DNA of 64,000 bases from Mobula hypostoma. Taxonomy: Eukaryota. The notes beneath the pieces were generated by a model. The model did not search any database. It was not told the origin of the DNA and was given only the letters and a program-made list of their open reading frames with translations. How positions within the stretch are numbered: position 1 is the stretch's first letter; every line of letters starts with the position of its first letter. Shown in pieces: positions 1,904-15,609 of the stretch. Location: assembly GCF_963921235.1 (NCBI RefSeq), contig NC_086107.1, positions 116,996,001 to 117,060,000 on the forward strand, written 5' to 3'. The translations under genes and the position numbers were made by a program.

Positions 1904-2817
1904 TTGGAAGTTACAAAACATAACAATAGGAATTACTGATATGACCCACCTGTGTTTCCCTTGTACATGGGGAGAGGGAGAAGAGTCAGATGGGGTGGGA
2001 GATGGTTAGGGGAACACAGGCATGACTTCTGGATTCAGAGGGAAGAGGGAAGATTTGACAGTTCGGAGACATTGAGAGGACTCTGTTGTGTATCCTGAGT
2101 ACAGTTGGGTGAGTGTGATGGTTAGAGGTGGAAGTTAGTAATGGGTCTAAATTCTGCATGATGTGTATCTGTGGCAGAGTCAGAGAGCGCAGGAAAGTGC
2201 CAAGAGTCGCGGTTACACTATAAGGAGAGGGAGAGTTTGAATTCAGGGTGAGGGGCAGGGGTTTGTCAGAGTCAGGTGAGAGGTGATGGAGAGTCAGCAT
2301 CTAGATGAGGGAGAGTGAGGTGGGGTGTGGGAGATCATGGTCAGGATGGAAGAGGGGCAGTCAGATTCAGGATCGGGTGACGGGGAAGCAGTATGGGTTT
2401 GGGGTGTGTGCGAAAGAAGAATATTTAGGATGGGGGGACAGGGCTTCATGAGTCAGGTGAGGGAGAGTCAGCATCTAGATGTCTAGATGAGGGGGAATGA
2501 GGGGGAGTTGAAGTTGGGTCATGGTTGTTACAGAGAGGGAGAGAAAAAGTGGGGTTCAGAGAGAGATTGAGTGCAGAGACAGAGAGAGAGAAATGTGAAA
2601 TAAATGCAAGAAGAACAAATGATTGAGTAATGAGGGCGAGGCGAGGGATGAAAGATCAACATGGAGGGGAGAGCAGTCTTGGGGGACTCACCTCACATCG
2701 AACTGCAGTGTCTGGACTCAGACTCTGGAACTCCCTTTAAGGTCCCCTCTTTGCTCCTGCTCATGATTATGCCTCTACCTTTGTACCCTCACTCTGTACC
2801 TCAATTATGTTCTCTAA

Positions 2818-2955
2818 TTTATTTATTTATTGAGATACAATACGGAATAAATCCTTCTGGCCCTTTGAGCCGTGCCACCCTGTAAATCCTCATTTAACCC
2901 TAGCTAACCACAAGACAATTTACAATGACCTATTAACTGACTAACCTGTCAGTCC
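2818..2955 (-). mobile_element. 3' fragment of a SINE/LINE-tail repeat
   Basis: A (TTTA)n tail is followed by 'ccttctggcccttt...tttaaccctagctaaccacaagacaatttacaatgacctattaac'. This resembles SINE 3' ends that share a CR1-type tail; recognised by resemblance only. Confidence 0.45.
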
Positions 2956-3073
2956 TGAATGCAATGAATCCTAAAGCATCTCTTTCGGTCCACCCCTGAC
3001 ACTCTCTCTGACCCAGACATTCTCTCTCTCAAGTTCAAAACTCTCTTTCTAAGGATTCCCAGCAACCCATCTG

Positions 3074-3102
<29 letters not shown>
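3074..3102. repeat. (CT)n microsatellite
   Basis: Uninterrupted CT dinucleotide run. Confidence 0.95.
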
Positions 3103-3105
<3 letters not shown>

Positions 3106-3160
3106 TTCTAACACTGATTCTCTCGAACTCTCTCATTTGCTCTGTCTAACACACATACAG

Positions 3161-3451
3161 TGTTGGCGCGTGGCCAAGTGGTTAAGGCGTCGGTCTAGTG
3201 ATCTGAAGGTCACTAGTTCAAGCCTGAGGCAGCATGTTGTGTCCTTGAGCAAGGCACTTAACCACACATTGCTCTGCGACAACACCGGTGCCAAGCTGTA
3301 TCGGCCCTAGTGCCCTTCCCTTGGACGATATTGGTGGCGTGGAGAGGGGAGACTTGCAGCATGGTCAACTGCCAGTCTTCCATACAACCTTGCTCAGGCC
3401 TATGCCCTGGAAACCTTCCAAGGCGCAACTCCATGGTCTCACGAGACTAAC
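3161..3451 (+). mobile_element. tRNA-derived SINE with a CORE-like central domain (5' part; its last ~10 nt lie at 6805-6814)
   Basis: Pol III A-box-like TGGCCAAGTGGTT (3171-3183) and B-box-like GTTCAAGCC (3216-3224), followed by GTGTCCTTGAGCAAGGCACTTAACC, which resembles the CORE-SINE consensus. The element is flanked by AACACACA at 3148 and 6818. Confidence 0.75.
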
Positions 3452-3914
3452 TACTACTACTACTACGTCGACTCAGGCCTAGGGTGCTGGCGTAGGGAAC
3501 AATGACGGACTCTCCACTTCTCCCTCTCCCTCATCAGTGTGTTCAGTTCATCTACATTAGCCGTGCCACTGTCTTCTAGGAGCATGTTGACTATAGTCTT
3601 GGGATGGTGCCCAAGGTTCATCCTCCCGTGCTTGGGCTCCCATATGATGACTAGACTGGCAGGTAGCTCAGGGTGGCATAGACAGTGCCCCACTAGTTAC
3701 AGTCTTCTCGCCTCGATTTTAATGGAGAGCATCGGTAGGTTGTTATAGAGCTCAACATTCGTCATGTGCTGTTGCCAACTCACATCAAGAGCCATCTGGA
3801 CCATTCATGTACAGCAACCATCTAGAGACTTTCACATCGTCTTGGTGAGTGTCCACGTTTCGCATCCGTATGTGAGAATGGACTCTATGACTGCAATGAA
3901 AATCCTCTTTTTAA
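3452..3914 (-). mobile_element. RTE-clade LINE, 3' (non-inverted) segment with a (GTA)n tail
   Basis: The minus strand reads KKRIFIAVIESILTYGCETWTLT and then GHCLCHPELPASLVIIWEPKHGR...REREKWRV, the RTE-type C-terminus. The stop codon runs directly into the (TAG)n tail at 3452-3466. Confidence 0.85.
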
Positions 3915-6792
3915 TAAGAATCTCTTTGCCACCTGTGACCAACTGAAGGAAGAGGAACTAGCTGAGAGGATTAGAGAGATAGAAACTGCTAATGAAGACA
4001 TGCAGCATGGAGAAGCATGGCACCCAGTCAATGAGATCAGTAGACAGAAGAAGTCCCCATTAGGTCAAATAAGTGGTAAAACAGTAGAGGACCGTATCCT
4101 GACATGGTTTACCCACTTCAAGAAACTGCTGGGAAGCCCTCCAATGATCACAGAAGAAGAAGAGGACATACCCATGATACTAACGCAAGTTGACATTGAT
4201 GACAGCCCATTCGCCATTGAGGAACTGAAGAAGGACAAATATGCACTCAAACAGGGCAGGAGTGCTTGACCAGATGGGATAGAAACATAGAAAATAAGTG
4301 CAGGAGTAGGCCATTCGGCCCTTCGAGCCTGCACCGCCATTTATTATGATCATGGCTGATCATCCAACTCAGAACCCCGCCCCAGCCTTCCCTCCATACC
4401 CCCTGACCCCCGTAGCCACAAGGGCCATATCTAACTCCCTCTTAAATATAGCCAATGAACTGGCCTCAACAGTTTCCTGTGGCAGAGAATTCCACAGATT
4501 CACCACTCTCTGTGTGAAGAAGTTTTTCCTAATCTCGGTCCTAAAAGGCTTCCCCTCTATCCTCAAACTGTGACCCCTCGTTCTGGACTTCCCCAACATT
4601 GGGAACAATCTTCCTGCATCTAGCCTGTCCAATCCCTTTAGGATCTTATACGTTTCAATCAGATCCCCCCTCAATCTTCTAAATTCCAACGAGTACAAGC
4701 CCAATTCATCCAGTCTTTCTTCATATGAAAGTCCTGCCATCCCAGGAAACAATCTGGTGAACCTTCTTTGTACTCCCTCTATGGCAAAGATGTCTTTCCT
4801 CAGATTAGGGGACCAAAACTGCACACAATACTCCAGGTGTGGTCTCACCAAGGCCTTGTACAACTGCAGTAGTACGTCCCTGCTCCTGTACTCGAATCCT
4901 CTCGCTATAAATGCCAGCATACCATTCGCCTTTTTCACCGCCTGCTGTACCTGCATGCCCACTTTCAATGACTGGTGTATAATAACACCCAGGTCTCATT
5001 GCACCTCCCCTTTTCCTAATCGGCCACCATTCAGATAATAATCTGTTTTCCTATTTTTGCCACCGAAGTGGATAACTTCACATTTATCCACATTAAATTG
5101 CATCTGCCATGAATTTGCCCACTCACCCAATCTATCCAAGTCACCCTGCATCCTCTTAGCATCCTCCTCACTGCTAACATTGCCACCCAGCTTCGTGTCA
5201 TCCGCAAACTTGGAGATGCTGCATTTAATTCCCTCATCCAAGTCATTTAATATATATTGTAAACAACTGGGGTCCCAGCACTGAGCCTTGCAGTACCCCA
5301 CTAGTCACTGCCTGCCATTCTGAACAGGTCCCGTTTATTCCCACTCTTTGCTTCCTGTCTGCTAACCAATTCTCCACCCACACCAATACCTTACCCTCAA
5401 TACCGTGTGCTTTAAGTTTGCACACTAATCTCCTGTGTGGGACCTTGTCAAAAGCCTTTTGAAAATCCAAATATACCACATCCACTGGTTCTCCCCTATC
5501 CACTCTACTAGTTACATCCTCAAAAAATTCTATGAGATTCGTCAGACATGATTTTCCTTTCACAAATCCATGCTGACTTTGTCCGATCATTTCACCGCTT
5601 TCCAAATGTGCTGTTATCACATCCTTGATAACTGACTCCAGCAGTTTCCCCACCACCGACGTTAGGCTAACCGGTCTATAATTCCCCGGTTTCTCTCTCC
5701 CTCCTTTTTTAAAAAGTGGGGTTACATTAGCCTTAAAAAGTGGGGTTACATTAACCTTAAAAAGTGGGGTTACATTAGCCCAGATACCACCAGATGTCCT
5801 GAAGAACTGCGACCTGGACAACATCTTGCTGGACATATGTAATACGGCATTGATGAAAGGCGACAAACCAGAACAGTGGTCACTCTCAAACATTATCCCA
5901 GTCCCCAAGTCTGGATCCCTCACAAAGACAGATAACTACCGCGGTATCAGCTTGACCTGCATCTTAGCAAAGTTATACAGTCGGATGATCTTAAATAGGA
6001 TTCGCACCACCATTGACCCTAAGCTAAGATTCAATCAGAATGGTTTTCGGCAGAAGCACTCAACAGTAATGCAAATACTTGCTCTCCGTAGGATCATCGA
6101 GGAAGTCAAGAAGAACAACCTACCAGCCGTGCTTACTCACATCGATTTTCGCAAAGCTTTTGACTCCATTCACCGAGGTAAAATGCTGAAGATCCTGAAA
6201 GCTTACGGAGTGCCAGACCATCTACTGAGAGCAATAGAGTCCAGCTATACCAAAACCATGACGAAAGTTGTATCACCAGACGGAGAAACAGCAGTGTTCG
6301 AGCTCCTAGCTGGTGTGCTGCAAGGAGACACTCTGGCACCCTACATCTTTATAATCGTCCTTGATTACGCTCTGTGACAAGCTACCAAAGATCATGACAA
6401 GCTTGGTTTTACCATAAAACCAGGGCAAAACCAAAAGGGTCAGACCGGTTATGCTCACAGATCTCGATTTTGCAGATGACATAGTCCTGCTCTTTGAGCA
6501 GGTGGAGGAAGCACAGCCCCTACTGACAAAAGTGGAAATAGAATTCAATAAAGCTGGACTTCACCTACACACTAAAAAGACAGAGTGCATGGTGTTTAAT
6601 TGCGTCGAAGGTACTCTCAAGACCGTAGAGAATGATACCATTAAGAAAGTCTTTGATTACAAGTACCTCGGGTCAAGAATGATGAGTTCGGAGAAGGACA
6701 TAAAGATACGGAAGGCGCTGGCGTGGAGGGCTATGAATGACATGAAGGAAATCTGGAAGTTGAACCTGACAAGAGGGCTTAAAAAGAGGATT
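3915..6792 (+). mobile_element. RTE-clade LINE, inverted upstream segment (linker and reverse transcriptase), interrupted by a CR1 at 4281-5780
   Basis: ORF 4000-4269 ends GRSA*PDGI and resumes at 5783 with IPPDVLKNCDLD. ORF 5826-6377 contains NYRGISL, QNGFR, IDFRKAFDSIHR and GVLQGDTLAP. ORF 6451-6816 contains DLDFADD (catalytic motif, 6469-6480) and YKYLGS. Stops and frameshifts are present. Confidence 0.9.
4281..5780 (-). mobile_element. Relatively young, 5'-truncated CR1 LINE (RT domain and 3' UTR) nested in the RTE
   Basis: Motifs [58 protein letters not shown] and FFTQRVVNLWNSLP. The tail 'agaaacatagaaa' lies at 4281, and GATA is duplicated at 4278-4281 and 5783-5786. Confidence 0.95.
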
Positions 6793-7107
6793 CACGAGAC
6801 TAACGGATGCTTATAAAAACACACACACACACACCTCTCTCCTCACTGACTCTCTCGTATCTGGACTCCACCTCTACCTTTGTGCGTTAGTTCTTGCACC
6901 ACACTGTCACAGACAAACACTGCCCTGTTGATAAGAAAAGGTTACAAAAGACCATGAGACATCAGAGCACAATTAGAGCATTCAGTCCATGTCATTTGTT
7001 CCATCATCTGATTGTCTGATTTATTATCCCTCTCAATTTCATTCTCATTTGCCGTATCATTTGACACCCTTTACTAATCAAGAACCTATCACCCCCCACT
7101 CTCTTTC

Positions 7108-7880
7108 AAAGTGTCTGCAAACACACCTGCCAGTTGTTTCATGCAAAACCTGAGTACCCACCCTGGGATGCTGTCCGGTCCCGCAGCCTTGCGGCTGTCC
7201 ACTCCCTGGAAACACCTGTGTACTTCAGCCTCAGAGATGACCAAGGTGCCGGTCACTTCAGCGGCTCTCCTCGCGGGCTCAGCGTTGGCAACATTGAACT
7301 GAGCATAAAAATGATTCAGCTCATCTGGGAGAGGCAGCAATGTTGGAAATACCACTGTGTTTAGCTTTGAAGTCTGTGATGATGTGCAGACCTACCATAA
7401 GCTGTGCATGTTGTTGGTGGAGAGTTGTGCCTGGATCTTGTTCCTGTATTGTCGTTTCACTGTCTTGATGACTTTGCTTAGATTGTAGCTGCATTTCTTG
7501 AGTTCTTGTTGGTTACCGGCAGCGTAAGCTCTGTCTCACGTGGTTAGTGCAGCACGCGCGGAACTGTTGATCCAGGGTTTCTGGATTGGATAGATCCTGA
7601 CCAATTTTTGGGGGACATTGTCCTCGATGCACTTCTGGATAAAGCTCCTGACCCCTTCTGTGAACTCAGAGACATCCTTATCACAAAAGACATTCCACAG
7701 GATGTCATCAATGCAGTCCTGTAGCATGGAGATCAATTGGTCGGACCAACAGTGGATGGTTTTAACTATGGCCACCTCTTGTTTCACCATCTGCCTGTAA
7801 ATGGGCAGAAACAAGATGGAGGGGTGATCTGACTTCCCAAACGGCGGACAGAGGAGCACTTTGTAAGAGTTGCGGAAAAT
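7108..7880 (-). mobile_element. Rex1/Babar-like LINE fragment (end of endonuclease and linker up to the start of RT)
   Basis: Motifs PPFGKSDHPSILFLP, YPIQKPWINS, LPDELNHFYAQF and RKAAGPDSIPGWVLRFCMKQLAGVF resemble fish Rex1-type elements. Confidence 0.8.
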
Positions 7881-13981: not shown

Positions 13982-15609
13982 CAGTGGATGCAAAAGTTTT
14001 GGCACCCCTGGTCAAAATCTCTGTTACTGTGAATAGCTAAGCGAGTAGAAGATGAACTGATCTCCAAAAGTCATAAAGTTAAAGATGAAACATTCTTTTC
14101 AACATTTTAAGCAAGATTAATGTACAGTATTATTTTTGTTTTGTACAATTTTAGAGTGGAAAAAAAGGAAAGGAGCACTATGCAAAAGTTTGGGCACCCC
14201 AAGAGATTTGAGCTCTCAGATAACTTTTACCAAGGTCTCAGACCTTAATTAGCTTGTTAGGGCTATGACTTGTTCATAATCGTTATTAGGAAAGGCCAGG
14301 TGATGCAAATTTCAAAACTTTATAAATATCCTGACTCCTCAAACCTTGTCCCAACCATCAGCAGCCATGGGCTCCTCTAAGCAGCTGCCTAGCACTCTGA
14401 AAATTAAAATAAATGATGCTCACAAAGCAGGCGAAGGCTATAAGAAGATAACAAAGCATTTTCAGGTAGTCGTTTCCTCAGTTCATAATGTAATTAAGAA
14501 ATGGCAGTTAACAGGAATGGTGGAAGTCAGGTTGAGGTCTGGAAGACCAAGAAAACTTTCTGAGAGAACTGATCATAGGATTGCTAGTAAGGCAAGTCAA
14601 AACCTCTGTTTGATTGCAAAAGACTTTCAGGAAGATTTAGCAGGCTCTGGAGTGGTGGTGCACTGTTCTACTGTGCAGCGACACCTGCACAAATATGACC
14701 TTCATGGAAGAGTCATCAGAAGAAAACCATTCCAGCATCCTCACCACAAAATTCAGCATCAGAAGTTTGCAAAGGAACATCTAAAAAAGCCTGATGCATT
14801 TTGGAAACAAGTCCTGTGGACTGATGAAGTTAAAATAGAACTTTTTGGCTGCAATGAACAAAGGTATGTTCGGAGAAAAAAGGGTGCAGAATTTCATGAA
14901 GAGAACACCTCTCCAACTGTTAATCACGGGGGCAGATCAATCATGTTTTGGGATTGTGTTGCAGCCAGTGGCACGGAGAACATTTCACTGGGAGAGGGAA
15001 GAATGAATTCAATTAAATACCAGCAAATTCTGGAAGCAAACATCACACTGTCTGTAAAAAAGCTGAAGATGAAAAGAGGATGGTTTCTACAACAGGATAA
15101 TGACCTTAAACACACCTCAAAATCCACAATGGATTATCTCAAGAGGCACAAGCTGAAGGTTTTGTCATGGCCCTCACAATCCCCTGACCTAAACATCATA
15201 GGAAATCTGTGGATAGACCTCAAAAGAGCAGTGCATGCAAGATGGCCAAAGAATCTCACAGAACTAGAAGCCTTTTGCAAGGAAGAATGGGTGAAAATCC
15301 CCCAAACAAGAATTGAAAGACTCTTAGCTGGCTGCAGAAAGTGTTTACAAGCTGTGATACTTGCCAAAGGGGATGTTACTAAGTACTGATCATGCAGGGT
15401 GCCCAAACTTTTGCTTCAGGCCCTTTCCCTTTTTTGTTATTTTGAAACTGTAAAAGATGGAAATAAAAAAGTAATTTTGCTTAAAATATTAAAGATATGT
15501 GTCATCTTTAACTTTATGCCTTTTGTAAATCAGGTCATCTTTTACTCGCTTAGCTATTCACAGTAACAGAGATTTTGACCAGGTGTGCCCAAACTTTTGC
15601 ATGCCATTG
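13982..15609 (+). mobile_element. Full-length Tc1-family DNA transposon (1628 bp) with long IR/DR-type terminal inverted repeats and a TA target-site duplication
   Basis: TA at 13980-13981 and 15610-15611. The left end CAGTGGATGCAAAAGTTTTGGCACCCCTGGTCAAAATCTCTGTTACTGTGAATAGCTAAGCGAGTA is the near-perfect reverse complement of the right end. Inner direct repeats lie at 14181-14200 and 15396-15414. Confidence 0.97.
14367..15389 (+). CDS. Tc1 transposase, 340 aa, open reading frame but third catalytic residue E->G (probably inactive)
   Basis: ATG at 14367 (GCCATGG context), N-terminal HTH region with GRPRK, WTDEVK, QQDND and SPDLNIIGNLW. There are 34 residues between the second D and the G encoded by GGA at 15201-15203. 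Confidence 0.9.
   Translation: MGSSKQLPSTLKIKINDAHKAGEGYKKITKHFQVVVSSVHNVIKKWQLTGMVEVRLRSGRPRKLSERTDHRIASKASQNLCLIAKDFQEDLAGSGVVVHCSTVQRHLHKYDLHGRVIRRKPFQHPHHKIQHQKFAKEHLKKPDAFWKQVLWTDEVKIELFGCNEQRYVRRKKGAEFHEENTSPTVNHGGRSIMFWDCVAASGTENISLGEGRMNSIKYQQILEANITLSVKKLKMKRGWFLQQDNDLKHTSKSTMDYLKRHKLKVLSWPSQSPDLNIIGNLWIDLKRAVHARWPKNLTELEAFCKEEWVKIPQTRIERLLAGCRKCLQAVILAKGDVTKY

Follow-up and report, generated by a model that had tools for sequence, protein, structure and literature searches.

The twin-priming model of 5' inversion is said to go back to Ostertag and Kazazian in 2001. It holds that both ends of the cut target prime reverse transcription on one RNA (PMC2912911, PMC12016303). According to the available excerpts of the literature on L1, inverted inserts are flanked by target-site duplications (TSDs) of 10-20 bp, and overhangs of 10-20 nt have been proposed to be required for inversion (PMC4245944). 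In the human germline the arms overlap in 44 of 106 inversions, with a median of 12 bp; the median TSD is 13, and the median lengths are 751 bp for the inverted and 571 bp for the non-inverted arm (PMC12016303, same limitation). As far as the accessible text goes, inversions in human cells were found only for L1, apart from one Nimb-2_DR insert (PMC4245944). The sequence-only reading of this DNA had described twin priming as a mechanism known mainly from mammalian L1; this holds, with that one published non-L1 case set beside it.

Two other systems are close. RTE insertions carry TSDs of 7-15 bp and a run of T near position -10, and the available part of the paper mentions no 5' inversion (PMC6007223). 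The R2 element can produce snap-back junctions, at which already-made cDNA is copied (PMC11371274, excerpts).

The window, which is the whole stretch of 64,000 nucleotides analysed, contains one LINE insertion, likely of the RTE clade, with its upstream part inverted within a single TSD, and twin priming is most likely the mechanism that produced it. The insertion and its target are composed of the following features.

3160..3451, plus strand: tRNA-headed SINE, the target of the insertion, left part ending in the TSD (Rfam tRNA match, contig depth)
3439..3451, no strand: left copy of the TSD, 13 bp (sequence identity)
3452..3466, minus strand: 3' tail (GTA)5, including the stop codon of the ORF (repeat read directly)
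3467..3914, minus strand: non-inverted 3' arm, the C-terminal ~148 codons of the ORF with 3 stops (tblastn to relatives, e.g. P0006 residues 895-1035)
3901..3914, minus strand: overlap copy 1, start of the non-inverted arm, 14 nt (identity and contig joints)
3915..4277, plus strand: inverted arm, part A, linker between endonuclease and reverse transcriptase (RT), 5'-truncated at 3915 (P0006 residues 444-563)
5783..6791, plus strand: inverted arm, part B, RT to LTRGLKKRI (Pfam RVT_1 and relatives)
6779..6792, plus strand: overlap copy 2, putative second priming site, 14 nt (identity and contig joints)
6792..6804, no strand: right copy of the TSD, 13 bp (identity, and the junction in contigs X1 record 8 and X7 record 32)
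6805..6833, plus strand: presumed rest of the SINE tail, then (CA)n (sequence)

The two-arm structure inside one TSD is real. The exact 13-bp duplication that had been reported around the whole insert is indeed identical in its two copies; it is not extendable on either side and occurs in the window only at these two places. With ±10 nt of slack per end, a 13-mer would recur at the two ends of the element by chance with a probability of about 9e-6. The (TAC)5 at 3452-3466 is (GTA)5 on the other strand, which bears out the placing of the 3' part and its (GTA)n tail on the minus strand. The tail adjoins the left TSD copy with a 2-nt overlap, as the TSD starts with GT on the sense strand, continuing GTA. 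Including the tail, the non-inverted arm measures 463 bp (448 bp without it). Both arms lie within the single TSD. The tail stands at one copy; the inverted arm reaches with its downstream end precisely to the edge of the other copy and with its truncated upstream end to the beginning of the tail-primed arm. The translations ...LTRGLKKRI for the plus part and KKRIFIAVIES for the minus part are as the sequence-only reading gave them, and so are the 14 bp present in both arms: 6779-6792 and 3901-3914 are reverse complements. One T, the last of this overlap, is shared with the right TSD, which begins with it, and 13 nt belong to the element only. In annotations, 5'-inverted copies of this kind show up as two fragments of opposite strand.

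The stretch 3915-6792 had been taken for plus-strand RTE sequence throughout. This is correct for 1,372 bp, which is the length of the inverted arm without its nested insert; the other 1,505 bp (4278-5782) are a minus-strand CR1-type LINE, counted with one copy of its 4-bp duplication. Part B of the inverted arm starts with the right copy of that duplication and has one stop and one frameshift near 6427. The nested element has these features.

4278..4281, no strand: left copy of the 4-bp duplication of the CR1 element (contig joint 4277 to 5783)
4282..5782, minus strand: nested 5'-truncated CR1-type LINE (RT ORF pieces; summed depth about 1e6)
5709..5780, minus strand: 24-mer in three tandem copies at the 5' junction of the CR1 element, two of them extra (repeat; family contigs)

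The clade name was assigned by motifs, not by a tree, and CR1 is presumably the right one. In three of the four runs whose contigs were compared, a joint from 4277 to 5783 with 4 shared letters skips the CR1 element exactly. Family contigs diverge from the window after 5732 in 4/4 runs. The CR1 insertion is later than the RTE copy, and it was rejected as the cause of the inversion, its ends not lying at the breakpoints.

The position of the CR1 ends also bears on a later inversion, in which an ordinary 5'-truncated insertion would have been flipped by break repair, staggered breaks giving the 14-nt inverted duplication. Such an event is expected to leave the identical end layout, and a slight excess of divergence in one arm is no argument against it. 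It would require, however, that one breakpoint match the 5' insertion junction to the base while the TSD stays intact, and the flanks of the segment hold no long inverted repeats. The CR1 ends, too, lie away from the breakpoints. This course of events is quite unlikely.

Whether both arms come from one element was judged from contigs of four runs (three samples), which were compared with 2800-7200 at 85% likeness. Sixteen of the 24 listed runs had been set aside: 12 held under half of the words, and 4 held none or were not indexed. Word shares of 0.26-0.36 equal the share of the CR1 element in the stretch, and runs with such shares were unused, X15 excepted. The comparison covers the 15 of 485 joints and 32 of 319,327 pieces that were listed. 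Among the listed joints, the opposite-strand joints 3900/6792, 3901/6791 and 3914/6778 share 13-14 letters in 4/4 runs from 3 samples. The other copies thus run directly from the plus into the minus arm, so that the intact family has the 14-mer once, whereas the copy here has it twice. The arms are accordingly contiguous at the KKRI point in the family, as had been supposed.

Collinearity and the best match among proteins are in agreement with a single source. The four pieces are collinear in 33/33 relatives of at least 900 aa among the 120 listed. P0006 is the best match for all four pieces, and it is sister to each arm in the two trees, with weak support. Across the relatives, the bit scores of the pieces are uncorrelated (rank correlation). 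Differences to single other copies amount to 84/671 (12.5%) in the minus arm versus 239/2,476 (9.7%) in the plus arm, p about 0.03, counted on the longest pieces only and with two duplicate rows dropped. Stop codons number 3/148 versus 2/453 (p 0.10), and the end branch is 1.32 for the minus and 0.31 for the plus arm. By these measures the minus arm looks slightly more diverged than the plus arm. The 3' end is roughly ten times deeper in the contigs, and for this reason the comparison pool of the minus arm probably includes older copies; the region of the minus arm also evolves faster among the relatives.

The apparent excess of divergence in the minus arm is what two separate RTE fragments placed back to back, from two insertions or from two RNAs, would account for. 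Such an origin is nevertheless very unlikely. One TSD surrounds both arms, the plus arm has no tail, and all pieces have the same nearest relative. Furthermore, the meeting points of the arms agree to within 14 nt on the element, and two independent breakpoints would fall that close at random only about 1% of the time, a figure that does not yet include the condition that one of them lie at a TSD edge.

The right junction, from the inverted arm through the TSD into the flank, is bridged by X1 record 8 (6742-7046, 1 difference in 305) and by X7 record 32 (6723-7175, 8 substitutions and 6 gaps in 447), which carries another organism label. X2 record 24, which extends only 29 letters to the left of this junction, was left out of the bridging contigs. 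X1 may represent the source of the window or its close kin, and X7 is clearly a different genome. The insertion is therefore shared and is no assembly product at its right end. An assembly artefact of a repeat-rich region would fit the fact that no piece among the 32 of 319,327 listed spans the whole stretch and that two of the three junctions, the left and the internal one, do not appear in the listed rows (15 of 485 joints for the joints). It is made highly improbable by the right junction, which is found in single low-depth contigs of two samples, and by the perfect TSD, which is not expected from a misjoin.

The target is a SINE. Its tRNA-like head matches the Rfam tRNA model at 3164-3232 with 18.7 bits and an E of 0.29, under the gathering score of 29, and its summed contig depth of 1e5-1e6 is that of a very high-copy repeat. 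Read on the sense strand of the element, the A5 at 6815-6819 is a T5 run that precedes the TSD by 11-15 nt. In the window, two-thirds of which is satellite, the background for such a run is 13% for at least 3 T and 0.5% for at least 5 T. Neither a second copy of the SINE nor a second copy of the RTE family was found within the window, and the contig rows listed (15 of 485 joints, 32 of 319,327 pieces) include no empty site with a single 13-mer. The viral contigs gave 0 matches to the SINE-end pattern and no match to the RT.

RTE elements have one ORF of ~1,000 aa with an AP endonuclease and an RT, and a short tandem-repeat tail at the stop codon. L1 elements have a poly(A) tail and a C-terminal zinc knuckle. 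In the relatives of the element, a single ORF of about 950-1,090 aa encodes both AP endonuclease and RT; the window copy lacks the 5' part of this ORF. RVT_1 and Exo_endo_phos were both found in 5/5 scanned relatives, in one of them only at E 0.037. A stretch of roughly 500 nt upstream in L003 contains no ORF over 150 aa. A short tandem-repeat tail stands directly at the stop codon in the window copy, L003 and L005, and a CCHC-like motif was found in the last 200 aa of 0/44 long proteins, the cluster members included. The L1 clade was rejected in view of the (GTA)5 tail, which is not poly(A), and of this missing motif. The relative P0110, automatically named 'Craniofacial development protein 2', is presumably RTE-derived. 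The PDB matches, all of them proteins of L1 and R2, are not decisive for the clade. The 13-bp TSD falls within the RTE range, and the T5 at -15 to -11 is near the RTE target signature (PMC6007223, available part). Judged by its architecture alone (ORF, tail and TSD), the element likely belongs to the RTE clade, to which the sequence-only reading had also assigned it.

Protein searches for the same family in the region before 3915 yielded 0 matches and 1 match, the latter at 50% identity. Searches for loci gave 5 relatives with 40-61% protein identity, too distant for a comparison of junction bases. One of these five, the metagenome element L004, has the same layout and belongs to a family that is 86% identical to P0060. 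Its plus arm, residues about 97-580, ends in unrelated sequence; its minus arm precedes the plus arm, starts near residue 620 and runs off the contig, with about 39 codons absent between the two. L004 may be a second inverted copy, from a related family, whose TSD would lie beyond reach and for which a misassembly is possible.

The formation of the insertion by twin priming could have proceeded in the following way. The endonuclease would nick the plus strand after position 3451, near the tail of the SINE. The first cut end would then prime on the (GUA)n tail of the RNA, with 2 nt of complementarity, and copy 463 nt. A second nick, 13 nt away, would free a 3' overhang, which would prime in the same RNA at the KKRI codons with 1-3 nt of complementarity and copy 1,372 nt upstream. 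A stretch of 13-14 nt would thus be copied by both cDNAs, and the two cDNA ends would be joined at 3914/3915. The CR1 element would insert afterwards. The order of the molecular steps cannot be read from the finished insertion. The geometry that had been proposed for a non-L1, non-poly(A) element is nonetheless recovered in the single TSD, the tail, the ends of the arms and the 14-nt meeting point.

One detail of the earlier proposal is weak. A TTCA at the edge of the TSD had been matched to element sequence just past the inversion point. Only TCA lies in the TSD, because the left copy is preceded by C; the match is situated 2 nt past the junction, and in register it shrinks to one T. The 3-nt match at the second priming site would require the loss of two U, and 171/1,347 random positions (13%) do equally well, so that TTCA was rejected as strong evidence.

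The poor complementarity at the second site also speaks for another origin: a single cDNA would have been broken at KKRI with a stagger of 13 nt, either through repair or through the endonuclease of the element itself, and its far piece would have been sealed in backwards before the 5' junction was closed. The element-only part of the doubled stretch and the TSD are both 13 nt long. Overlap and TSD lengths are alike in human L1 too, a likeness left unexplained in the accessible text of PMC12016303, and this origin consequently stays alive. End remodelling, moreover, yields inversions at L1 sites (10.1101/2024.12.14.628481, in part). On the other hand, the 25 nt upstream of the overlap hold no run of at least 3 T on either strand, for which an endonuclease signature at the overlap was rejected, and L1 overlaps are likewise described as lacking an endonuclease motif (PMC12016303, excerpts). 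L004 shows a gap of about 39 codons instead of an overlap, and separate inverted cDNAs on both ends of a break have been captured for L1 (10.1101/2024.12.14.628481, in part). A cut and reversed cDNA is thus unlikely, and twin priming is preferred.

Snap-back synthesis of the kind catalysed by R2 proteins, in which the end of the cDNA folds back and copies itself, puts element sequence in antisense orientation at the 5' junction, as is seen here, and does so in an element that likewise is not L1 (PMC11371274, available part). In R2 it is the already-made cDNA that is copied, whereas the inverted arm at this locus is upstream sequence missing from the tail-primed arm, and the longest word shared outside the overlap is 8-11 nt. 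As the inverted arm is no copy of the tail-primed arm, snap-back can be dismissed with a probability close to nil.

Twin priming at this locus can be compared with the described cases as far as the available portions of those papers allow. Like human 5'-inverted L1 copies, the insertion combines a tail-primed arm with an inverted upstream one inside a single TSD in the range of 10-20 bp, its arms meet within 20 nt with an overlap close to the TSD length, and, as in germline L1, the inverted arm is the longer one. Unlike human L1, it has single-ORF relatives, a (GTA)n tail in place of poly(A) and no C-terminal zinc knuckle, and it differs from human L1 inversions in its minimal priming complementarity and its non-mammal host. 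It resembles the Nimb-2_DR insert in chicken DT40 cells, which is also a 5' inversion of a non-L1 LINE whose TSDs are about 12 bp long (PMC4245944); that insert, however, is one cell-culture event of another clade, whereas a germline copy common to two samples is described here. With the RTE insertions of PMC6007223 it shares the TSD range, a microsatellite-like tail, 1-2 nt of overlap between tail and target, and a T run about one helical turn upstream; the inversion sets it apart from the insertions described in the accessible part of that paper.

Ichiyanagi and Okada (2008) are said to have surveyed RTE junctions and may already report inversions. Their survey lies outside the literature covered, in whose available portions, on twin priming and on RTE, no report of a 5' inversion of an RTE element was found; the excerpts of PMC5389967 and PMC12477816 contain nothing bearing on RTE inversion. 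The locus is probably a case of an established mechanism in a clade for which its documentation is sparse.

In human cells, 5' inversions have so far been treated as nearly L1-specific, with the length of the overhang as what matters (PMC4245944, accessible text). With its TSD of 13 bp, the RTE-type copy agrees with that idea. The present copy suggests that ORF1p and poly(A) may both be dispensable for inversion. It is possible, although this is put forward tentatively, that twin priming is routine for elements of the RTE type, which lack both an ORF1 protein and a poly(A) tail, and that the doubled stretch tracks the TSD length in them as it does in L1. One dead copy alters little; a family-wide survey would make both the overhang requirement and the match between overlap and TSD testable, and, if the generalization is true, this genome would hold enough copies for such a test. 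It would then point to a fixed geometry of the complex of RT and endonuclease, conserved across LINE clades.

An inverted layout like that of the window's RTE copy, a dead, likely RTE-type LINE, is also seen in a related RTE-type element carried by a metagenome contig (L004, positions 1-1645). The two arms of this element are separated in element coordinates by a gap of about 39 codons, and the contig stops short of the element's tail.

The following features lie within the RTE copy or downstream of it:
5709-5780, tandem 24-mer with two surplus copies, at the 5' junction of the nested CR1
14304-15386, uninterrupted Tc1-type transposase frame of 361 codons, with DDE_3, HTH_SB and HTH_Tnp_Tc3_2 domains
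20177-64000, 14-bp satellite, occupying the final 44 kb

Past position 5732, the sequence of the family contigs, which come from public sequencing runs, departs from that of the window in all four runs. The surplus 24-mers at the CR1 junction may be a trace of repeated re-priming as the 5' end was being attached, or of later slippage.

The SINE into which the RTE copy inserted (3160-3451) has a tRNA-like head, and differs from the family contigs by a small deletion near 3224. The initial 1.9 kb of the satellite array is on the opposite strand and is more diverged (72% matches), the strand switching at about 22090.

Among the matches listed (P0001-P0120), the RT of the RTE copy is 66-76% identical to most of its protein relatives, which at this level include many metagenome proteins as well as proteins named from teleosts, oyster and brittle star. 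Horizontal transfer among aquatic animals could lie behind this similarity.
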